From Octopus sinensis (Eukaryota), in contig NC_043007.1 of the NCBI RefSeq assembly GCF_006345805.1, positions 46,996,001-47,060,000 of the forward strand: 64,000 bases of DNA, given 5' to 3'. Each line of letters opens with the position of its first letter. Within the stretch, counting starts at the first letter, position 1. Below, in pieces: positions 9,619-59,495 of the stretch. A program made the position numbers and the translations under genes. Below the pieces are notes generated by a model. That model was given only the letters and a program-made list of their open reading frames with translations, made no database searches and had not been told where the DNA came from.

Positions 9619-11660
9619 GTCACACAGTATACAATATCGTGAGGTTGTTGATCGTAGCTATTACGTCTACTAGGAGTCTGTATTGTCTGTCAGGTTACAA
9701 CAATGACCTCAGACATACAGTACTTTACGCAATATACGTGCAGTCCCAAGTAATGCCAATTTTTGAAATACACCCAGATTGTAGGGTATTTCTAAAGTTT
9801 CAGATGTGCTTTTCAGATTGGGTGTTATTGAACCCAATACTTCGATGACAATAGGGATAACCTTTATGTTTGACTCTCGTAGCTGCCACATTTTAGCTAT
9901 CTCTATTTTCAGGTCTTCACAGTTATCAGTCTTTTCTCTTTCTTTCGTGATATGTTGATCTCCTGGCACAGCCGCGTCATCTATTAGGCACTCTTGTTTC
10001 TCCCCCCTAAAGATTATTATATCCGGTCTTCGGTGCTCTAATACATTGTCTGTCTGGTAGTCAAAGTCCCAGAAGATTTTTGCTTTCTCCTTTTTGTCCA
10101 TTACCTTTCCAGGTGTATGTTCGTACCAAGCACTCGTAACCTCATATCCGTACTTACAACATAGATACCAATGGAGGTTTTCAGATACCTTGTGGTGTAT
10201 GCGCTCGTACTCTTTCTGTGTAATATTTTCACAAGCACTAACAATGTGAGTCACAATTTCCACCCTCTTTTAGGTCACCACGATGATGCTTCCTGGTCAA
10301 AATTCATGAGCACTCTCAAGTCCATTTTTGTTAAATTCTTCTGCATTAGGAGCATACTGTAGCGGGTCTTGTTTGCTGTTCACCAAATATTGTTATGTTT
10401 CTTCTTTCACTGCTGATGCCCTCCGTACGCTATTCAGCCCACGTCCACTTTTACCATCTTCATGTAGAGCCTGTGTACATTCACCTTAGGGTGGGGAGCA
10501 CCATACATTGTCATTATCTTTCGGGTACTACAATCGAGTTGGTTAATCTCCGCTTGTGTCCATTTCAGGATGCGTGATCTATAGCGGACTACAACAACCG
10601 CCCTTATGCTGATGGCATTCACAAGATTCCTTGAGTTGAGGTTTGATTTCAAGGGACGTTTAAGGAGCTTGAAATATACAATGATGACGTCGTCGTTCAT
10701 TTCTTTTTGCAAGATATTGTCCAGCTCCAGTATCCCAAGATACTTCAACCCATCATCAACCGGGTCTTCCATTATCCCTTCCTTTGGCAATTATATGCCT
10801 CTGCAATTTACTTATTTCCCCCGATTCACAGTAAGCAACGCACACTTCGATATATGGAATTCCATCCCAAATACCTTGCTGCAAATTTACAGTCTCACCC
10901 AGCCTCTCTATTTCAGTTTCTGTTTTGGCAAACAGTTTTAAATCATCCATGACAAGAAGGTGGTTGAGACGAAGTTTATTCTTTCTCAGCTCACAGTGCG
11001 TGTAAACTTTGCGTAGGACTACAGAAAGTGTGAGAAAGGCTATAACAAATAACAGAGGTGAACAAGATTCTCCTTGGAAGATACTTATTTTGATTGTTAC
11101 CTCGTCTAAGTGCTAGTTGTTACAGGAAAGACGTGTTTTCTAACTAGGCATGCTGTTCTTAATCAGTGCACACACGTTCTCAGCTATTCCACACATGTTG
11201 AGTAAGCCTTTTTAAAGTCTATCCAGGCATGCACAATTTCTTTTTTTGGTACCGTTTTTAGTTCTTCATTACAACCTTGCCTACAAGGTGGTCCTTTGTA
11301 GCCTTGCATACTTTTCGGCACCCCTTTTGTTCTAATGGAAGTATATTGTTTTCCGCAAGGAACGTATATATTGTCTATGCAGGGATGCCTGTTATCACTA
11401 TCCATAAGAAGTTGAGTCAAGCAACGGGTCGGTAATTGCTAACCTCATTACCCATTGACCGGTCTTCAATCAACAATGATGTCGTTCTCTCTACAATCTA
11501 AACCGGAACTGCTCCACACTGTAGGCACACTCTCAAATTGCAACGCAAAGACGCTTGTGTGTTGACCTAAACCACTTGAGCCAGTAGCCTTGAATTACGT
11601 CTGGTACTGCTGCTTCCTAGTTTAGCAGTTTTGATACCTGTGCAATTACATTTTCCGTTG
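9618..11660 (-). mobile_element. Decayed R4/Dong-like non-LTR retrotransposon (RT plus restriction-like endonuclease)
   Basis: MDDLKLFAK, KYLGILE, HIVSAC..H and RRPDIII..LIDDAAVP..KEREK motifs. The 3' UTR abuts (TAA)n at 9571-9617. Confidence 0.85.
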
Positions 11661-30079: not shown

Positions 30080-32283
30080 AAGAGCCAATGAAGATACACA
30101 CAGACTATCGTAGTGGCGCGAGATGTACTACATATTCAGCTGTTCACTACCAGTGAACTAATGTAACACCTCTTAATTTTCGAGCACCTTCCGGAGTATT
30201 CCAGCGGTTCCAGGCAGTGCTGTTTTCTCCACCCTTATTGCAGCCCCTATTTGTTCCACGTACGTCTCGAGATTTTTGCTCATTGTTCCCAGGGATCCGA
30301 CAATTATTGCTACTACTGCTATCTTTTTCATCGACCACAACTGCTTAAATTCCCAATCTAACCTGTCATATCTCCCGACTTTTCTTTCTTTCTTATCGCA
30401 TACCTTGTCGGCTGGGCATGCTATATCTATGGTCCAGCGTAATTTGTTTTCTTTCAGAATTAAGACTATGTCCGGCTTCCTGTTCTCTATCTCATGGTCG
30501 CAGTGAATCATAAAATCCAATAGGATCTTTGCATTTCTATTTTCGATGATGCCTTCAGGTTTGTGGTCGTACCAAGTTTTTGATCTGTGAAGTCCATACT
30601 TGTTGCAAAGTGTCCAATGGACAAACCTGGCTATATGGTTGTGGCGTCTCTTATATTCCTTCTGGGCTAGTGGCATACGTTAGCTGGTAATATGCCATAC
30701 GGTTTCACCGTTTTGTTCACAGATTCTGCATTATCACTTTCTGCTGTGTTGTCTATTTTGTATTGTATGTAGTTTGTTCTTAGTGCTTGCTCTTGGACAG
30801 CATAGATTAGAGTCTCCGTTTCCGGTTTTAAACAATTTTTGTCATCCACAGCCTTCTTTTTTCTCTGTTGGTCATATCTTCAACATCCCTATGAAATTGA
30901 TCATGCATTCTTTTCTTTACCCACCTATTTTCAGTTTCATTCGTTTTCAATTTCTTGTATATTACTTTATCTTTGCAATCTTTTAACCTACACAAACCTG
31001 ACCTTCTTACTTCTAATAATAGCGGTTCCGTGGCATTTTTTGCATACCATGCTATGTTTTTATCTTCTGCTCTACTGCTGTGTTCGCATCCAATAAGTTC
31101 TCTTCCCCCTACTTTCTTGGTAAATACTGACTGTCTGTGTCACATTTTGGGTGGAATGACCCATTTCTAGTTAGCAACTTCCTTGTCTTTCTGTCTAAGC
31201 TGTTTAATTCCTCTACTGTCCATGCGATTACCCCTGCTCCATATCTAAGGAGTGAAACTGTCAAGGTGTTGATAGCTTCGATCTTATTCTGTCCATTAAA
31301 TTCCGACATAAGGATTAGTCTCAGTCTGTGCAAGCACTCCACCTTAAATTTTTCTGTCATTTCTTTCTCCAACAATTTATCCATTTCCAAAATCCCCAAG
31401 TACCTGTAGCCCGTCTCTTCTGTCTGCTTCATAACCTCCCCCGATGGTATCGCTAGCCCGCTCATACTTTTGATTTTGCCTTTTTTCAAGAATATCACAC
31501 ACTTTCTCAGTCCGTACTCCATTCTGATATTAGAACTGAAGGTATACGCCATATCAACGAGGGAACTGACTTGGGTTTCATCTTTACCATAAAGTTTGAG
31601 GTCACCTATGAATAACAAATGGTTGACTTTTCGTTGGCGGCTTTTGAATACATACCCAGCTTTTGCTTTCCTCAGAATCAGTGTTAGTGGTATCAAGCAC
31701 AGTACAAAGATCTGTAGGGACACTAATCTTTGTACTTGGAAGATACCCGTCCTAATCTCTACTGTCCCTAAACTTCTTCCGTTTGCTGTCAGGTCCGTCC
31801 TCCAATTTGCCGTACTTTTTCCAAGCAATCACTCAACATTCGATGCAATACAAAATAGGTTCATAATTCATAATACAAGAATGTGGGATCATATCGTACG
31901 CTTTACAATAGTCGATTTATGACAAGGTTAAGTTACTTTTCTTCCTCTTGCAGTCTCTCAGTACAATTTTATCTATCAGGAGTTGATCATTGGTACCTCT
32001 GCACTTACGCTTGCAGCCCTTCTGCTCCTGTGGCAGGATTTCATTTTTTTCTAGATGTTCGTAGATTGAATCTGCGAGTATTCCAATCAATAACTTCCAC
32101 ATAAGTGGCAAACAGGATATCGGTCTGTAAGTGTCTACTGTATTGCCTTTTTCGATGTTTTCAGGCACATCACTGTCCTACCCAATGCCAATCACTCTGG
32201 TCGGCATTTAACAAGGTGTAGAGTTGCGCAGCTATTCGTGCATGACATTCCCCAAATCTGTTGATCCAGTTGCTTTGAACACC
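30080..32283 (-). mobile_element. 5'-truncated R4/Dong-like retrotransposon
   Basis: [38 protein letters not shown] and RKPDIV..IDIACP motifs. The 5' end abuts (TAA)n. Confidence 0.88.
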
Positions 32284-32361: not shown

Positions 32362-34860
32362 ACATTTTTTTTCTTCTTTCAAATTTGCTTCCATTTCTTG
32401 CCGAGTGTCTTCCCGACTCCTAGGGCAAAGAAACTCATAGTATACATTGGTAAGCCATTAAACCAAACTCAGTAGTTCGTTTATTTTTTTATTTTTTTTT
32501 TTTTAAAGTTAAATTAAAATATATGAGCAGCAACAGTTCTCACATCGACAATGCTCTTCTCAATACGTGTGATGTACCAGTTAAGACAATCTTTTGCACT
32601 TCTTGCAGGGATGGTAAGCCAGGGATCATTCTCATATAATTTTCGGTTCCCTTCTTGATCATTCCTAGTGCTCCTACGATCACTGGTATTGTAACCGCCT
32701 TGAGATGCCACATTTTCTCAATTTCAATGAGTAGGTCTTTATATTTTCTGAGCTTGTCAAACTCTTTCGCTGAGATATTATGATCACAGGGGATGCTCAT
32801 GTCGATCGATAAGCAAACTTTATTGTTTTAGTCTTTCACAACAATATCTGGTTTATTGGCCTTGATGGGTCGGTCTGTATGTACTGGAAAGTCCCACAGA
32901 ATGGTTACATTTCCTCTTTCAGTTGCAGCCTCAGGGTGGTGATTATACCACTTGTCGGCAGTTTTGATATTGTAATGCCGACTTATTAGCCAGTGGAGAT
33001 ATTGGCCAACTCTGTCATGTCTTAATTTATACTCCACTGGTGCTAAGACTTTACATCCAGAGATTAGATGGTCCACTGTTTCAATCATGTCGTTGCAGAA
33101 TCGGCATTTTGGGTCTGCTCCATTTTTCATCACATTGGCCTGGTAGTTCCGGGTTAATAGGCTTTGATCTTGAGCAGCCAGGATGAAACCTTCGCTCTCT
33201 GCTTTTAGCCCTGAGCTCCGTAGCCACTGATGGGTTTGCTTCTGGTCAACATCAGCTTGTTTGCTGCGGGTCACATATTTGCCGTACAGAGGTTTCTCCT
33301 CCCACCTATCAGCCAATTGCTCGTGCGCTTTTTTCATTGCCATCATTTTCACCTTCTTTGCAACAATAGTTGCCGTACTTCCCTCGGTTGTTCAGTTTGG
33401 GTATCCTGCACGAGATCAATAGCAAATTTTTTGCTTTCCTTTATGATAGAATGAAGCTTCTTTCGTCTCTCGTGATTTTCCACGAGCTTTAGCATCCAGT
33501 CATTCGATATTTCGAGATATTTGGCCAGTCCAATTGTGGTTGTTTTGTAAGCTAGTTCAAATTGGATCAGGCCTCGACCTCCTTGGGCTCTGGGAAGGTA
33601 AAGGCGATCTACGTCTGCCTTTGGGTGGTGCATCCTATTACAACTCAGCAGCTTGCGTATTTTCCTATCTATATTCTTTACTTCACTCATATTCCAGTTC
33701 AACACATTGTAGCTATAAGTAACAACTGGAACTGCTAAGGAATTTATAGCTAACACCTTGTTACGTGCATTTAGTTCAGATTTCAGGACTGCACGAACTC
33801 TCATATACATTCCTTCCTGATTTTCTCTTTCATGCTTGCATGCTGAATACCAGAGCCTTCATTTATCCCTAAATATTTGTATGTTTGTTCTTGCTCAAGC
33901 TCTCTTATGACTGTGTCAACATCTAACACGACTGAATTTGTGGTCTTCACTTTCCCTTTCTGGAAAGTGGCCTTGGCACACTTCTCAAGTCCAAACTCCA
34001 TCCCGATGTCATCGCTGAATGATTTCACGGTGCGCAATAGGCCTTCAAGTTCATTATTGTCTTTACCATAAAGTTTTAAGTCATCCATATAAAATAGATG
34101 GCTTATTTTTTTATTGGTAATTTTATACCCATACTCTGTTCTGTTTAATTCACTTGTAAGGGGTATTAGGCTATGCAGAATATTAAAGGTGAAAGTGAGT
34201 CACCTTGAAAAATTCCACAGTTGATGTTTATATTTTCTGAGGCAAGTACTCCATTAGAGTGGTATAATTGGAGATTCGTATTCCACAACGACATATTGTG
34301 CTTCAGGAAGTTTGAAATCACAGGGGAAATTTTGAAGATGTCCAGTGATCTCAAGATCCATTGATGCGGTATACTGTCGAAGGCCTTTTTATAGTCAATC
34401 CATGCGGTGCTGAGATTTCTGCGCTTGTGACAGTTCTCAAGGATCATACGATTAATTAGCAGTTGATCTTTGCATCCTTATGAGCCTCGGCGGCACCCTT
34501 TTTGTTCATTGGGGAAAATATCGTTCTTCTCCATGAATGCATATGTTTTCTCCGCCAGGATAGATGTTAGGATTTTATACGTGGTGGATAAACAGGTTAT
34601 AGGCAGATAGTTTTTTGGAAGTTTGGTTTCGTTATTCTTTGGTAGTAGGTAAGTAATACCACTTGCTAACCATTCAGGTGTTTTCTTTGGCTCTCTCATA
34701 ATTCCATTTAGCAGCTGAACTAGCTTACCGTGTGCGCATGGGAGCGATGCGAGCCAGAAATTCGGCACCCTATCTTTACCGGGGGATTTCCAATTATAGA
34801 CCTTCGTGAGTGCCTTTCTTAGGTCTGCTATTGTGATGTCTTCCCATGCTTGTTGTTGTA
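32362..34860 (-). mobile_element. 5'-truncated, relatively young R4/Dong-like retrotransposon
   Basis: Near-continuous RT (WIDYKKAFDS, GIFQGDSLSPLIFC, MDDLKLY), CRFC..ETVDHLISGC..RHD and KPDIVV..D..K motifs, split by a few frameshifts. (TAA)n on both sides. Confidence 0.92.
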
Positions 34861-35069
34861 AATTATTATTATTATTATTATTATTATTAGCAGTAGTAGT
34901 AGTATTATTGTTATTATTATTTCGGTGTGAATGGTCTTTTATACGGCGCCGAGTTTACAATCCTGTAAAAAATAATTGTGGTATTTTTATATAAGCATAA
35001 AGCAATGACTAAAGAAAATAGTCTAATAAAAAGATATATAAGCCCGCGACAGAAAAAAGAAGGCTTTCC

Positions 35070-40042: not shown

Positions 40043-41698
40043 CATTTAATAACAATTTATCAATGGGTACGGGCATTGAGTGTACTCCGCAAAAATGAAA
40101 AGTTAACAGCTCTGGTCATCTCAACTTAGATCGACCGCTATCCAAAGCCAGAGTAGTGAGAGTAAACTTCTTTTTCTACGGAGGCACAAGCATGCTGATT
40201 AGAGTGGATGAGAGTAATATTTCAAAAGATTAAAGCAAATCTTATGCATTTCAATTATTAAATGCATAGACTTAATATACTCGAAACGGTGAAATATATA
40301 CATACACATTCACACACACGCACAGGCACCCACACATACACAAACATACACATACATGCACCTAAGCACGTGCTCGCACACACAAACGCATACACACGCA
40401 CATCGGTATATCACCTGAAGCTATGTAATGCGGTTGCATTGGTTTGAACAAAAGTAAGTTTCAGCTGATGCGATAATGAACAAATATGTAAATTTCTCAC
40501 GTCCGATGGCACATAAAAAAAGGCATGCCAACTGGACTTAAGATAGCGGTCTTCCAATTGGCAGTAGCCAAATATATACGAAAGCCAAAATAGAAAAATA
40601 TTCCCACCTGTATGAAATATGATATATGCTTAACTATAAATATTACTTATTCTTTTAAAACACCTGAAAAGTTTATGCAACAAAATTCGCAGAAATTTTA
40701 CTACAATGATGTATACGTGAGAACATCCGTTACGTTTTGATGGCGTTGTTAGAATGGGTGAGTACAATGTGATTTGTGAAAACGGCTTTAATAGCCGTGG
40801 ATGCGATATCATGTTATATGTCTTCCCACATTGTCAAATAATTGTGCGAGTTTACTGAAAGCTGTCGCCGCAAATGGTATTTTATCATTTTCTGACATTT
40901 GTATTAGTAAGTCTAGAATTCTACTAGGCGTTGTATACCGTTCACGCAAAAAAGAAACAACCGAAAAATCACACATATTTTGACTTCTCACTTCCATAAA
41001 GAAAAACAAACGTGTTGATTTCAAGTACACAGTCATTGATGGGTAAACCTTTCTAGTCGCCTCCAAATATAATGATTTCATTTATTTCCTGTTAGACGCG
41101 AAAATTTAGACGTAACAAAATTTTCTATTCGTTATTTATCACTGCTATTGAACCTATCTACAATTATTTATGTAATTCTATCATTGTCATATGAACAAAA
41201 AGAAAAGGGGGACACCGCTATCAGAATGCGTACTTTGACTACATGACCGGTAGGATGACTTACTGTATGAAGATGTAGCGACCAAACTGGCCTGGATTTT
41301 GTGATTCTGTCAATGTTATGTTTCAGCAAAACCGAAACTTAACATGGGTATTATGCGAAGTATAAGTAATACGCAAATGTCTGAGTAACTCTAAAACGTA
41401 ATCTGAGACATTGAAGGAGATCATGCCAGAAAAATAAGGACATTAATTAAGGAAGGAGAAAAGAATAACATACAGTCGGCTTTACAACGGTTGATGGTCA
41501 AAGCTAATTTGTGTTACCCAATTGTTCTACTGGCTGAAAAGATTCAGTGTCAGTTTATCTCTTTAAATAGTGATACCATTTTCAATACTGGAATCAGTTA
41601 GAGCATAAGCATATATGCACACTTATATGCATACATACATACCTACGCACATACACACACACATATATGTACCTATATATATATATATATATAGTATC

Positions 41699-41740
<42 letters not shown>

Positions 41741-41752
41741 ACACACGCACAT

Positions 41753-41791
<39 letters not shown>

Positions 41792-42058
41792 GCAATTAAG
41801 GACAACTACTTAATAAGGAAAACTTAACAAGAAATTGTCAGGTAGATAGCGTGAAAACCTCATAAGAGAATAAATTTCGAAAATAATTATTTCTTATTGA
41901 ACATATTAATCTATATATAGAGGGCATTATACATACATGCCAGAGGGCATTATACATACATGCCACACGCTAAGAGGGACAATTAGTCATTTCTACCAAA
42001 AATATTACTAATCCCACCGAATGCAATTTTTCAAAGTAAGACATTTAAAAAATATAGA

Positions 42059-42100
42059 CCTGTATCACAGTGATTTCATACTTACGTATTCATCAGCAGG
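42059..42100 (-). ncRNA. Type I hammerhead ribozyme, array 1 copy 1
   Basis: Minus strand reads CCTG-CTGATGA-ATAC(GTAA)GTAT-GAAA-TCAC(T)GTGA-TA-CAGG: intact core, stems I/II/III paired, AUA cleavage triplet. Confidence 0.92.
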
Positions 42101-42534
42101 CCTGAATGTATCATAAATAAACGACCCTGCCCCGCTTAAGCCGATCAGCTAACTGATCAACATCAACGAAGCACATGGGTGAGTTTACATATATTACATC
42201 CTGTAAATGGCATACTTTTACGAATTGCATTTCGGGAAAGGAAAAGTTTTTTCGGAATAAAAATTTAGCAATTAAGGACAACTACTTAATAAGAAAAACT
42301 TAACAAGAAATTATCAGGTAGATAGCGTGAAAACCTCATAAGAGAATAAATTTCGAAAATAATTATTTCTTATTGAACATATTAATTTATATATAGAGGG
42401 CATTATACATACATGCCAGAGGGCATTATACATACATGCCACACGCTAAGAGGGACAATTAGTCATTTCTACCAAAAATATTACTAATCCCACCGAATGC
42501 AATTTTTCAAAGTAAGACATTTAAAAAATATAGA

Positions 42535-42576
42535 CCTGTATCACAGTGATTTCATACTTACGTATTCATCAGCAGG
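42535..42576 (-). ncRNA. Type I hammerhead ribozyme, array 1 copy 2
   Basis: Identical to 42059-42100, 476 bp away. Confidence 0.92.
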
Positions 42577-43010
42577 CCTGAATGTATCATAAATAAACGA
42601 CCCTGCCCCGCTTAAGCCGATCGTCTAACTGATCAACATCAACGAAGCACATGGGTGAGTTTACATATATTACATCCTGTAAATGGCATACTTTTACGAA
42701 TTGCATTTCGGGAAAGGAAAAGTTTTTTCGGAATAAAAATTTAGCAATTAAGGACAACTACTTAATAAGGAAAACTTAACAAGAAATTGTCAGGTAGATA
42801 GCGTGAAAACCTCATAAGAGAATAAATTTCGAAAATAATTATTTCTTATTGAACATATTAATTTATATATAGAGGGCATTATACATACATGCCAGAGGGC
42901 ATTATACATACATGCCACACGCTAAGAGGGACAATTAGTCATTTCTACCAAAAATATTACTAATCCCACCGAATGCAATTTTTCAAAGTAAGACATTTAA
43001 AAAATATAGA

Positions 43011-43052
43011 CCTGTATCACAGTGATTTCATACTTACGTATTCATCAGCAGG
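43011..43052 (-). ncRNA. Type I hammerhead ribozyme, array 1 copy 3
   Basis: Identical to 42059-42100. Confidence 0.92.
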
Positions 43053-43282
43053 CCTGAATGTATCATAAATAAACGACCCTGCCCCGCTTAAGCCGATCAG
43101 CTAACTGATCAACATCAACGAAGCACATGGGTGAGTTGAAAAATTGCATTCGGTGGGATTAGTAATATTTTTGGTAGAAATGACTAATTGTCCCTCTTAG
43201 CGTGTGGCATGTATGTATAATGCCCTCTGGCATGTATGTATAATGCCCTCTATATATAAAATATATATATATATATATATAT

Positions 43283-43356
<74 letters not shown>

Positions 43357-43543
43357 GTGTGTAATTTTCCTTTGTTAAAAATTAACACGGGAAAAACAGA
43401 CAAATAGTTACCAGGGTAGCAAAATATCACACAAGTAAAAATGTTATTGAAGTTAGAAACTCCGGGTTTACGTAAAATATTTTGTATTATATATATAAAT
43501 AAATTAATTGAGTTAAACGCAGGTCTTATTAAAATTCTTTTAC

Positions 43544-43628
43544 CTCCGACACATCTTTCGAAGATATCACTGGTATTATTTCAAAGGAATAAAATGGTGT
43601 AAAACAATGTAATCTTTTCTTCAGGGAA
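43544..43628 (-). ncRNA. Slightly decayed type I hammerhead with long stem II (family D)
   Basis: Minus strand: ttcc-CTGAAGA-aaagat...atcttc-GAAA-gatgtg-TC-ggag. Lies within an AT-rich unit ~43360-43940 bounded by microsatellites. Confidence 0.65.
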
Positions 43629-43994
43629 ACAGAATATCATGGATATGTATAATGATTAACTAAACGCTATTTGTGTACAAAAAACCATAGAGGATATAAC
43701 GTCAAAGGTAGCCTAAAGAAAGAGGAGGGGTAAAGGAAAAAAACAAATAAATGAGTAGTATATAACGATATGTAAATTAAATAAAACTCTTAAGTCTTGG
43801 AAAAAGATATATCTAGTGAATGTGAAATGTAAGAAGAAAATTAACGTTTAAATTATATTGAATGATAGATATCACTTATATGAAATAAGGTGTGTTTCTG
43901 CCAATGTTTACATCGGTATGCACGCTCTATGCGTTTAACTGCATTTATTAATTTACACACACACACATATATATGTATATATATATATATATAC

Positions 43995-54451: not shown

Positions 54452-54483
<32 letters not shown>

Positions 54484-54756
54484 AAAATTTAGCAATTAAG
54501 GACAACTACTTAATAAGGAAAACTTAACAAGAAATTGTCAGGTAGATGGCGTAAAAACCTCATAAGAGAAAAAATTTCGAAAATAATTATTTCTTATTGA
54601 ACATATTAATTTATATATAGAGGGCATTATATATACATGCCAGAAGGCATTATACATACATGCCAAACGCTAAGAGGGACAATCAGTCATTCTACCAAAA
54701 ATATTACTAATCCCACCGAATGCAATTTTTCAAAGTAAGACATTTAAAAATATAGA

Positions 54757-54797
54757 CCTGTATCACAGTGATTTCATACTACGTAATCATCAGCAGG
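54757..54797 (-). ncRNA. Type I hammerhead ribozyme, array 2
   Basis: CCTG-CTGATGA-TTAC..GTAT-GAAA-TCACTGTGA-TA-CAGG on the minus strand, with a 1-nt deletion in loop II. Confidence 0.8.
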
Positions 54798-55230
54798 CCT
54801 GAATGTATTATAAATAACACAAACCCTGCCCGCTAAGCCGATCAGCTAACTGATCAACATCAACGAAGCACATGGGTGAGTTTAAATATATTACATCCGG
54901 GTAAATGGCAAGCTTTTACGAGTTGCATTTCGGGGAGAGGAAAAGTTTTTTCGGAATAAAAATTTAGCAATTAAGGACAACTACTTAATAAGGAAAACTT
55001 AACAAGAAATTGTCAGGTAGATAGCGTAAAAACCTCATAAGAGAAAAAAATTCGAAAATAATTATTTCTATTGAACATATTAATTTATATATAGAGGGCA
55101 TTATATATACATGCCAGAAGGCATTATACATACATGCCAAACGCTAAGAGGGACAATCAGTCATTTCTACCAAAAATATTACTAATCCCACGAATGCAAT
55201 TTTTCAAAGTAAGACATTTAAAAATATAGA

Positions 55231-55271
55231 CCGTATCACAGTGATTTCATACTTACGTAATCATCAGCAGG
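55231..55271 (-). ncRNA. Type I hammerhead ribozyme, array 2
   Basis: Same motif with a 1-nt deletion in stem I. Confidence 0.78.
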
Positions 55272-55706
55272 CCTGAATGTATTATAAATAAAAACAACGA
55301 CCCTGCCCCGCTTAAGCCGATCAGCTAACTGATCAACATCAACGAAGCACATGGGTGAGCTTACATATATTACATCCGGGTAAATGGCAAACTTTTACGA
55401 ATTGCATTTCGGGAGAGAAAAGTTTTTTCGGAATAAAAATTTAGCAATTAAGGCAACTACTCTAATAAGGAAAAATTAACAAGAACTTTGTCAGGTAGAT
55501 AGCGTAAAAACCTCATAAGAGAAAAAATTTCGAAAATAATTTTTCTATTGAACATATTAGTTTATATATAGAGGGCCATTATATATACATGCCAGAAGGC
55601 ATATACATACATGCCAAACCTAAGAGGGAAATCAGTCATTTCTACCAAAAATATTACTAATCCCACCGAATGCAATTTTTCAAAGTAAGACATTTAAAAA
55701 TATAGA

Positions 55707-55748
55707 CCTGTATCACAGTGATTTCATACTTACGTAATCATCAGGCGG
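55707..55748 (-). ncRNA. Type I hammerhead ribozyme, array 2
   Basis: Core intact; the 5' strand of stem I is altered. Confidence 0.7.
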
Positions 55749-56029
55749 CTGAAGTATTATAAATAAACAACGACCCTGCCCCGCTTAAGCCGATCAGCTA
55801 ACTGATCAACATCAACGAAGCACATGGGTGAGTTTACAATAAAAATTTAGCAATTAATTGCTAAATTTTTATTCCGAAAAAATTTCCTCTCCCGAAATGC
55901 AATTCGCATAAAGTTTGCCATTTACCGGATGTAATATGTAAACTCACCCATGTGCTTCGTTGATGTTGATCAGTAGCTGATCGGCTTAAGCGGGGCAGGG
56001 TTCGTTGTTTATTTATAATTACATTCAGG

Positions 56030-56070
56030 CCGCTGATGATTACGTAAGTATGAAATCACTGTGATACAGG
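56030..56070 (+). ncRNA. Type I hammerhead ribozyme, array 2 inverted arm
   Basis: ccg-CTGATGA-ttacgtaagtat-GAAA-tcactgtga-TA-cagg. Confidence 0.78.
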
Positions 56071-56505
56071 TCTATATTTAAATGTCTTACTTTGAAAAAT
56101 TGCATTCGGTGGGATAGTAATATTTTTGGTAGAAATGATATGATTGTTCCCTCTTAGCGTTTGGCATGTATGTATATGCCTTCTGGCATTGTATATATAA
56201 TGCCCCTTATATATAAATTAATATGTTCAATAAGAAATAATTATTTTCGAAATTTTTTCTCTTATGAGGTTTTTACGCTATCTACCTGACAATTCTTGTT
56301 AGTTTTCCTTATTAAGTAGTTGTCTTAATTGCTAAATTTTTATTCCGAAAAAACTTTTACTCTCCCGAAATGCAATTGTTAAAAGTTTGCCATTTACCCG
56401 GATGTAATAATATTGTAAACTCACCCATGTGCTTCGTTGATGTTGATCAGTTGGCTGATCGGCTTAAGCGGGGCAGGGTCGTTGTTTATTTAGAATACAT
56501 TCAGG

Positions 56506-56547
56506 CCTGCTGATGATTACGTAAGTATGAAATCACTGTGATACAGG
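56506..56547 (+). ncRNA. Type I hammerhead ribozyme, array 2 inverted arm
   Basis: cctg-CTGATGA-ttacgtaagtat-GAAA-tcactgtga-TA-cagg. Confidence 0.85.
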
Positions 56548-56768
56548 TCTATATTTTTAAATGTCTTACTTTGAAAAATTGCATTCGGTGGGATTAGTAA
56601 TATTTTTGGTAGAAATGGACTGATTGTCCCTCTTAGCGTTTGGCATGTATGTATATGCCTTCTGGCATGTATATATAATGACCTCTATATATAAAATATA
56701 GATAGATATATATATATATAATATAAAAGTATAACTCCACACTAAGATGTCTAGAGAACTCAAATGTA

Positions 56769-56898: not shown

Positions 56899-56932
<34 letters not shown>

Positions 56933-56993
56933 ATATATATTTAGTGAAGGAAGAAATGGAGCTGAACGAAGATTCTACAGAATTCCTTTTATT

Positions 56994-57079
56994 ATTTTCT
57001 ACACATGTTTCAAAGGCCGCAAATTTCCAAATTCGGACTGAATAAGGAGACCATTTTGCAGCTTTCTCTTCAGGAAAAT
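56994..57079 (-). ncRNA. Type I hammerhead ribozyme, long stem II (family C, left arm)
   Basis: Reverse complement of 57463-57548 with one stem II substitution that keeps pairing as G-U. Confidence 0.85.
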
Positions 57080-57462
57080 CCAGGAATTTAAAACTCCAAA
57101 ACAAATGCGCATCAAGGTATTCGAACAAAACGCTCCTTAGGAGCCCATGAAATAGCACAAAACTGTCTCTCAATTTGCGTTGATGTCAGGGGGGGTGGAG
57201 GCCGACGAAAAAGTCCGTTGGAATAAATCAGGTCAAACTGCGGTCAAACCTGGTAGTGGAAGAAATACTGAAAACCAAAGGGTGTGAATATATTCTGTAT
57301 AACTAATGCTAATGTTCGGAATGTTTTAAGAATTAAGGCTGTCTTATTTAAGGTGTGAGAACCTGCCTACATGTATGTGTGTGCGCTCCTGTGTATGTGT
57401 GGGAAGGAGCGTTTTGTTCGAATACCTTGCTGCGCATTTGTTTTGGAGTTTTAAATTCCTGG

Positions 57463-57548
57463 ATTTTCCTGAAGAGAAAGCTGCAAAATGGTCTCCTTAT
57501 TCAGTCCGAATTTGGAAATTTGCAGCCTTTGAAACATGTGTAGAAAAT
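57463..57548 (+). ncRNA. Type I hammerhead ribozyme, long stem II (family C, right arm)
   Basis: attttc-CTGAAGA-gaaagctgcaaa...tttgcagccttt-GAAA-catgtg-TA-gaaaat. Distal stem I extension aattcct/aggaatt. Confidence 0.87.
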
Positions 57549-57798
57549 AATAAAAGGAATTCTGTAGAATCTTCGTTCACTCCATTTCTTCCCTTCACTA
57601 AATATATTAAAGTTCAATTATCCGCGCTAAGGCACGGTTGCGACACCCCAAGGTCGTAACTCCAACCGTGTTTTTTCTGTTGTGATTTTTGCTACCCAGG
57701 TATCGGTTAAATTTTGAATAATCCTTAACAAGATAATTCATTTATCCATTTCAATATATATATATATATATATATATAGATGTATGTATGTATGTATG

Positions 57799-58344: not shown

Positions 58345-59495
58345 GAACAGACATGCGCGCATACACACACTTGTATACACATGGACGCACACATATACTA
58401 TCCACACATGCGTATTTATTCATATATACAAGTCATGCATTCATACATGCACACATGCATGTTAGTGTCAAATCTCGCATATGAAAGACCTTGAGAGCTT
58501 CGAGTCTGACCTATGGAACGTTGTAAAGAAGGTGAGGTCTAGGCATGATTCTAAACCCTTCCTTAAATCCCTAAATGACTATATGATCAGCATTAAGCAA
58601 TCACCCAACATACACATACTCGCAGACAAAGCAAAGAACATTTACGAAATAAATACTTCCATAATATATTAAACATCGCACGCATCCAACTTCGCACGCA
58701 TCAACAGACGTAAAACTGCTCCCGCACCACCCCAACCCCAACCGGCCCTCTAAAGGATCTTGCCTCACAAGGGCTCTAGTAGACAGATACACCCTTTCAC
58801 CATCAGACGGCATTAGTAGGCACTATACCGGTGTGTCAGCCAATGACATCAAGGGAAAATACTCTCAGCATATGCACAAGTTCAGATCCAGGGACAGAGA
58901 GAACTCTCCTTCCCACTCTCATTTTGTTTGGAGCCTCCGTGACCACCGAGACGAAACATCCAGCATCGAGTGGACTATTGTCGACAGAGCCCTACCATAT
59001 TCACCCGACACTCACGACTGCCAGCTCTGCTTCCCTGAAAAACTGCATATACTCTAACAACCCGCAGTATCCATCAACAAGAAATACGATTCATCTTATT
59101 CCTGTCACCCACAGTATGCCCCTCTGGCGAATTTCAAGCCTCTGATTGCCGACAACCTGGATATACCTCCTTAGTACCAGCTGCTACTCTGCACCCCCTG
59201 CACCCAAGTCACCGTACTCAATAAAGCCTATGAGCAGGACCGCCAAATACCAATTCCCAAGCTTACCAGCCCATGCATTGTACTTATGAATGAATCCGCA
59301 TGTGTGTGCGTGTGTGCATGTGTTGCCCACCTTACGGTAATGACAATCAAGTCCTTTCAATCAAATTCAAAGTGGCTGAAGATCAGTATCACGCTTGAAA
59401 CTCTCGGAGTACCAACGAATTTGAACCAAGCTGCTTTGATCCATATATGTAACTCCCAATAAATGTTGAGTGCTCTCCTTTCGTTTGTCCACTCA

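Follow-up and report, generated by a model that had tools for sequence, protein, structure and literature searches.

Introduction

Animal non-LTR retrozymes accumulate as RNA circles (PMC7229834), and a preprint of July 2026 argues that retrozymes derive from Penelope-like elements, or PLEs, and are non-autonomous (bioRxiv 10.64898/2026.07.22.740005). In its account of Xenopus, 24 of 57 retrozyme families match known transposable elements at their termini, 21 of the 22 matched elements are PLEs, and eight of nine predicted retrozyme dimers gave no cleavage in vitro; its sample comprises vertebrates, three insects and a coral. In the passages of both sources that concern it, reverse transcription of retrozyme circles, and the enzyme responsible, are still treated as hypothesis (PMC7229834; bioRxiv 10.64898/2026.07.22.740005).

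PLE insertions are described as partial tandems with an inverted 5' copy and a tail that is often present at one end only (PMC8557442; PMC3846280), and the making of these tandem and inverted insertions is named as an open question (PMC8557442). According to the sections of PMC11167929 on the purified enzyme, nicking and extension by a PLE take place on both strands, AT-rich DNA is the preferred target, and reverse transcription begins at two internal sites whose spacing equals the tail. Hammerhead mutations did not reduce insertion, the main substrate was uncleaved RNA, and the hammerhead of the Anolis PLE required protein and was dispensable for insertion (PMC11167929).

The kind of element that we analyze here is thus already described (PMC7229834; bioRxiv 10.64898/2026.07.22.740005). 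Among cephalopods, the relevant part of a paper on the giant squid genome goes no further than a count of 235 hammerhead matches, and the words octopus and cephalopod are absent from the main text of PMC7229834. Full-text searches gave us no description of a cephalopod family of such elements, although Repbase, Dfam, subscription journals or supplements may hold one.

Results

The array lies at 41790-43137 of the window, by which we mean the whole 64-kb stretch of DNA that was analyzed, and TRF gives it a period of 476, 2.8 copies and 98% matches. The sequence-only reading had seen three near-identical head-to-tail units here. Their near-identity (1-5 substitutions apart) and their orientation hold, but the third unit is partial, the 2.83 units being two full ones and one of 396 nt. 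A higher-order dimer periodicity, drawn from the pattern in which unit 1 equals unit 3, was rejected, as the differences are private to unit 2.

With q1 as the base directly 3' of the cleavage site, this long arm runs on the minus strand from q354, the inversion junction, to a fixed long 3' end (site A; q262-273, 41790-41801, minus strand) that directly follows a predicted hairpin and joins (TA)n. A short inverted arm on the plus strand (43136-43268) meets it head-to-head with a 2-nt overlap at the junction; its 133 bp are 98.5% identical to unit positions 29-160. It ends in (TA)n at a fixed short 3' end (site B; the q143-153 region, 43245-43260, plus strand), directly after 23-bp hairpin repeats. 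The tail of about 120 nt between sites B and A is found only at the end of the long arm (41790-41909, minus strand). Both flanks are microsatellite target, (TA)n/(CA)n on the left (41663-41790) and (TA)n followed by (TAGA)n on the right (43261-43356), so the array does sit in (TA)n with a short inverted copy, as had been noted; a target-site duplication was unreadable in these flanks. Since this layout fits the two-end insertion pattern of PLEs, the window copy is one insertion event, in which A primed the long arm and B the short one.

The unit has a GC content of 33% and codes for no protein. Its longest stop-free frame is 56 codons and the longest ATG ORF, taken over the concatemer, is 42 codons, which upholds the description of a tandem type I hammerhead repeat without an ORF. 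The monomer folds with z = -7.9 (0 of 100 shuffles were equally stable), to which a 23-bp internal duplication contributes, and in this it shows the high self-pairing that is a feature of retrozymes.

A structural pattern scan for hammerheads over both strands of the whole window returned four matches, namely three identical type I hammerheads and one loose match at 43624. The three lie on the minus strand at 43008-43055, 42532-42579 and 42056-42103, and each has a stem I of 7 bp, CUGAUGA, a stem II with a GUAA loop, GAAA and a near-palindromic stem III. Their cores start at 43048, 42572 and 42096 and H17 falls at 43015, 42539 and 42063, which puts the predicted cleavage sites at 43015/43014, 42539/42538 and 42063/42062. 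The scan therefore agrees with the sequence-only reading on one complete motif per unit (three of three in the window) and on a predicted cut after AUA between 42063 and 42062. Cleavage at the three sites would free two full monomers.

What type I requires is present: the core CUGANGA, GAAA, UH, three helices and an open stem I. Stems I and II both form in the predicted fold of the full unit, where stem I (AGGCCUG/CAGGUCU, 7 bp with one G-U) has a mean pair probability of 0.97, as its proposed length would have it, and opens into a multibranch region. A distal helix, acatt/aatgt, that had been suggested beyond it was dropped, as each strand pairs with other sequence in that fold. The motif had also been called intact. 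This is true of its core, which is complete, but not of an efficient fold: stem III is worth +0.8 kcal/mol when it folds into a hairpin and -10.1 when two copies form a duplex, a misfold (-12.1) is favored over the active fold (-9.7) in the isolated motif, and the G10.1-C11.1 pair typical of canonical motifs is absent in all 60 loci compared, where the 10.1-11.1 pair is A-U in 46, U-U in 12 and G-U in 2 (it is G-C in a sister family, B, introduced below). Because the monomeric stem III is unstable and G10.1-C11.1 is missing, cleavage probably needs dimers or protein. By analogy with the systems of PMC4209133 and PMC7229834, it should be favored in tandem transcripts and disfavored in a monomer circle. 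The proposed check against the Rfam hammerhead model came back empty: nothing in the window reached the gathering score, and of the 12 matches up to E = 10 at 41700-43700 none was to a hammerhead family.

Some other features of the window deserve mention. A degenerate hammerhead-like motif with a long stem II lies on the minus strand at 43548-43624, 300 bp from the array; similar motifs at two other loci (L084, L088) point to its belonging to another repeat family. At about 56930-57600 there is a TA-flanked inverted pair of another repeat that carries a type I hammerhead-like motif with a palindromic stem III. Broken non-LTR retrotransposon frames occur at 9709-11112, 30173-31828 and 32540-34954 (minus strand), and we take their look to be R2/R4-like. 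Finally, among assembled contigs from four of 24 runs, which carry no information on strand, ends or circles, a contig of run X6 over 42461-42835 has eight plus-strand T-to-C differences (on the hammerhead strand they read A-to-G), and their cluster at 42749-42799 coincides with the predicted hairpin before site A. These differences could be A-to-I editing, seen in one contig of depth 9 under another organism code, from a run not recorded as RNA and without matched DNA.

The genome-wide search with the unit that had been proposed as a check found a dispersed, young family. In the 2.72-Gb genome 39 of 1,567 candidates were scored, and these yielded 152 matches; the full-length ones are mostly 97-99% identical, and short arrays are dispersed over many contigs. 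The genome contains 1,704 exact copies of a 30-mer that runs through stem II, GAAA, stem III and the cleavage site, and 0 of its reversed control, so the motif is not due to chance. Extrapolation from 42 loci among the first 100 matches listed gives about 700 loci. The earlier retrozyme reading is upheld, since the units are non-coding, arranged in tandem and dispersed, and every one has its own type I hammerhead. The window itself holds a second, independent insertion at 54481-56698, of a sister subfamily that is 90-97% identical. Its arms are head-to-head, the left end being of type A and the right end of type B, and it has many small indels.

Two older, diverged sister families (B and C; the family of the window array is A) align with the unit over its full length. 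At one set of sister-family loci (L097-L111) the unit is about 494 bp and copies are 89-96% identical, and at another (L112-L126) copies are 75-88% identical. Each older family has about 1,700 first-look candidates and two ends of its own, and the end domain aligns locally between sister families at z 13-30 against shuffles. We read the families as successive waves of one lineage.

All 13 core positions of the hammerhead are correct in the unit, the core is kept in 59-60 loci, and CUGAUGA shows one mismatch in 1,202 observations. The comparison of core with flanks that had been proposed came out divided. Among loci picked by unit similarity, or by the exact 30-mer, which itself covers 6 of the 13 core positions, one of 13 core positions ever varies against 171 of 463 others (p = 0.04), whereas for recurrent variants the contrast is non-significant (0 of 13 against 52 of 463, p = 0.38). 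Between families A, B and C, stems I, II and III all differ yet pair, and the core is kept, with a hammerhead pattern for the sister families that preselects core-like matches. In an unselected alignment of family C, three of four copies have a damaged core or cleavage position, as is expected of old copies. Stem III of family C is a perfect palindrome. These patterns suggest a ribozyme under constraint, which we count in favor of our best explanation.

The ends of the insertions were studied in 60 stretches, 40 of them best matches and 20 taken in order along the largest contig, that together contain 61 insertions. Their 3' ends fall at two positions, site B at q ~146-160 and site A at q ~272-282. 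Forty-five of the 61 insertions are head-to-head inverted, and 43 of these have one A and one B end; the remaining two combine A with a non-standard end, and none is A/A or B/B (p = 2e-13 against an independent choice of ends). Of the 16 direct insertions, 8 end at A, 7 at B and 1 elsewhere. A motif search located 100 terminal ends (52 A, 48 B; five rows that are internal copies are left out), and every one of them runs into (TA)4 or longer. An autonomous PLE of the genome has the same A/B polarity in all 4 inverted copies whose two ends are both visible, as do family B (read by eye; 8 loci look inverted, and the 5 that have two standard ends all conform) and a PLE family that we label N1 (1 of 1). 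Two fixed 3' ends with a tail, tandem and head-to-head copies, and a (TA)n target are features of PLE-mobilized elements, and it is in these that the link to PLEs, which the sequence-only reading had given as background, can be seen.

Sites A and B both read CCT, seven bases, TAAAT, directly 3' of a hairpin. The long end of N1 (L090:1060-1085) has a similar motif after a hairpin, a weak likeness in AT-rich sequence. In a separate observation, four of the 45 inverted insertions (L009, L056, L176, L178) have arms that start at nearly the same unit position in different unit copies, which makes the junction palindromic. Such junctions are more frequent than a uniform spread of starts would give.

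Arms are up to 12 units long and consist of unit sequence only. Their 5' ends are spread over the unit, and the pile-up at the cleavage site that cleaved linear templates would leave was looked for and rejected: 0 of 104 fall at q1-5 and 5 of 104 at q6-10, and 5 of 104 over q1-10 against about 2 expected is an unconvincing excess. Locus selection ensures that at least one arm per locus spans the cleavage site, the other arm being unbiased. Since arms read across the cleavage site, the template was continuous there, either as a ligated circle or as an uncleaved multimer.

Variants within the arms bear on this choice. For 117 variant alleles, all covered units carry the allele in the one arm and in the other, with more than one unit covered, and 6 of these 117 are private to one of 61 loci, where private is relative to a sample of 61 out of about 700. 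Against these stand one in-register and one partial case of sharing between arms, the in-register kind being what a heterogeneous linear multimer should leave, and 82 singletons for which the in-register unit of the other arm is covered are unshared. A further 18 variants are common within one arm only and therefore indicate local duplication after insertion. In a 13-unit insertion (L172), 16 variants are fixed in both arms and one is a singleton. The single haplotype of each insertion favors a monomeric circle as template without proving it; the evidence is not decisive, because young homogeneous source loci would look alike.

An ORF with reverse transcriptase and GIY-YIG domains joined to the repeat, the feature of an autonomous PLE, was found in none of the 60 stretches, and PLE fragments near units are separate or decayed. 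Elsewhere the genome contains intact young PLE frames of 781, 775, 727 and 717 aa. The GIY-YIG search scored 150 of 5,029 candidates, and the queries used were not specific to the Penelope/Poseidon, Nematis and Naiad clades. Young PLE families whose RT-GIY-YIG frames are intact number at least four (at L081, L085, L150, L129 and L137), and all of them end in (TA)n at two alternative ends. We provisionally describe two as two-ORF Neptune-like and two as Hydra-like, a naming by motif (PMC8557442) rather than by tree.

Six PLE families, labeled N1, N1b, N2, N3, H1 and H2 in this analysis, share no clear DNA with the unit among the BLAST matches listed, and their terminal repeats differ from it. 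Local alignment against shuffles gave z 4.4 for A with N1 and 4.7 for C with N2 among 18 AT-rich comparisons; set against z 13-30 between sister families, these were rejected as partner assignments. N1 is the best partner lead: a faint, AT-rich similarity links its final 120 nt to q124-200 (compared with AT-matched stretches of the genome, empirical p 0.003-0.005, uncorrected for six families). Inverted arms, however, are rare in N1 (1 of 40 scored copies), which counts against it. An apparent PLE-retrozyme chimera at L068 was rejected because a decayed element carries the retrozyme within its inverted arm. At L139 the insertion is nested in a TA tail. A decayed PLE endonuclease-region fragment in the window (58480-59100, plus strand; no Pfam match) was dropped as a partner lead because it leads to an old, broken, high-copy family.

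Discussion

We conclude with considerable confidence that the array is a non-autonomous retroelement of the animal non-LTR retrozyme kind that is copied by a PLE enzyme supplied in trans. The full explanation that we lean towards adds a circle as the template. A multi-unit array would be transcribed on the hammerhead strand, and neighboring hammerheads would cut it, probably by acting as a double hammerhead or aided by protein; the resulting 476-nt monomer would be ligated to a circle, both steps being modeled on known retrozymes. A PLE reverse transcriptase-endonuclease would then nick both strands of a (TA)n tract, as the TA flanks suggest, and of the two 3' ends one would prime on the RNA at site A, its counterpart at site B, which is how we would read the end positions and their A/B complementarity. 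Each round of reverse transcription would copy upstream, often for several units, across the cleavage site that arms are seen to span, and probably does so by going round a circle, the simplest route. Joining of the two cDNAs would produce the head-to-head structures observed, and where only one strand is primed, the 5' end would join the target via TA homology, in keeping with the direct insertions. Some long arrays were enlarged further by local duplication.

A stricter version can be put forward tentatively, and we would sooner doubt it than defend it: a PLE dimer nicks both (TA)n strands and obligately assigns its reverse transcription sites to A and B, each going round one 476-nt circle. 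If true, such an assignment would account at once for the tandems of pseudo-LTR type, the inversions with head-to-head arms and the tail on one side. It would also provide genomic evidence for retrozyme circles as a transposition intermediate, in a genome that itself encodes intact candidate enzymes.

The closest competitor concerns only the template. The same PLE-mobilized element could be copied from an uncleaved linear multimer, with a hammerhead that acts slowly or late and with length rebuilt by local duplication or template jumps. The weak monomer fold and the missing G10.1-C11.1 speak for this, as do the uncleaved RNA that is the main substrate of the purified PLE in the experiments described in PMC11167929 and the local duplication in the long arrays L051, L052 and L056. 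Reading across the cleavage site is expected of such a template too, and linear transcripts of a few young homogeneous source loci could give homogeneous arrays. A linear multimer would sit poorly, on the other hand, with one in-register variant against 117 fixed in both arms, 6 of them private, with the 13 units of L172 (16 variants fixed in both arms, one singleton), and with the circles in which described animal retrozymes accumulate (PMC7229834). On balance we think the linear template rather unlikely, and retain the circle as the preferred template.

Two further readings would deny that the array is an element of its own, or that it is a retroelement. The arrays might be truncated pseudo-LTR tandems of an unsampled autonomous PLE. 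Their end structure is exactly that described for PLE pseudo-LTRs (PMC8557442; PMC3846280), and the Xenopus families that match transposable elements at their termini (24 of 57, with PLEs as 21 of the 22 matched elements; bioRxiv 10.64898/2026.07.22.740005) set a precedent for such a relationship; yet arms of up to 12 units hold the unit alone, an ORF adjoins the unit in 0 of 60 stretches with nearby PLE fragments separate or decayed, and the terminal repeats of six PLE families differ, so we consider this improbable. Still further from the evidence is an ordinary satellite or minisatellite with a hammerhead relic that spreads at the DNA level, for which one may cite the tandem organization, some local amplification and the lack of an Rfam match. 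The scatter of short arrays over many contigs, the fixed ends within (TA)n, A/B complementarity and compensated hammerhead stems across families weigh against it, and the end analysis has already largely refuted it; we regard it as very improbable. The preferred reading remains a retrozyme copied by a PLE enzyme in trans, most plausibly from a circle.

As a test case, this family offers about 700 young insertions with exact start sites, a strict one-of-each end rule and a single haplotype within every insertion; the fold is conserved across three related families, and the genome that holds them also has several intact PLE ORFs. The A/B rule, in its strictness, and the uniform haplotype of each insertion make the circle-template hypothesis testable with enzymes from that genome.

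Comparison with known systems places the element at the meeting point of three described groups. With the dimeric type I hammerheads of PMC4209133 it shares an unstable, near-palindromic helix III and a predicted activation as a double hammerhead in tandem transcripts. Helix III here is 4 bp in the monomer and 5+5 in the dimer, as opposed to the 1-2 bp given in the relevant part of that paper, and the G10.1-C11.1 that it describes as typical of canonical motifs is absent.

With PLEs, as portrayed in the sections used of PMC8557442, PMC3846280 and PMC11167929, the family has in common tandem and inverted copies, a tail at one end and a (TA)n bias, together with a hammerhead in the repeat and two start sites of reverse transcription (PMC8557442; PMC11167929). 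Unlike PLEs, it has no ORF, and its tail is about 120 nt rather than 30-40. The PLE tail is said to be at one end 'often' or 'optionally' (PMC8557442; PMC3846280), whereas all 43 scorable inverted copies here are complementary in their ends, and for the PLE reaction in vitro no difference between strands in the start site was seen (PMC11167929), in contrast to the strict A/B division here.

The likeness to animal non-LTR retrozymes, as characterized in the passages drawn on, is broad: tandem units that lack an ORF and carry a single type I hammerhead, a GC content below 45%, a highly self-paired unit, dispersed monomers to multimers, and PLEs in the same genome. At 476 nt the unit exceeds the RNAs of 170-400 nt in PMC7229834 but falls within the 51-972 bp of the preprint (bioRxiv 10.64898/2026.07.22.740005). 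Two fixed ends and head-to-head arms are undescribed for retrozymes in the passages of these two sources. Circles and cleavage have been shown for published retrozymes (PMC7229834; bioRxiv 10.64898/2026.07.22.740005), and are predicted for the octopus family; on every feature that DNA can speak to, the window element corresponds to an animal non-LTR retrozyme.
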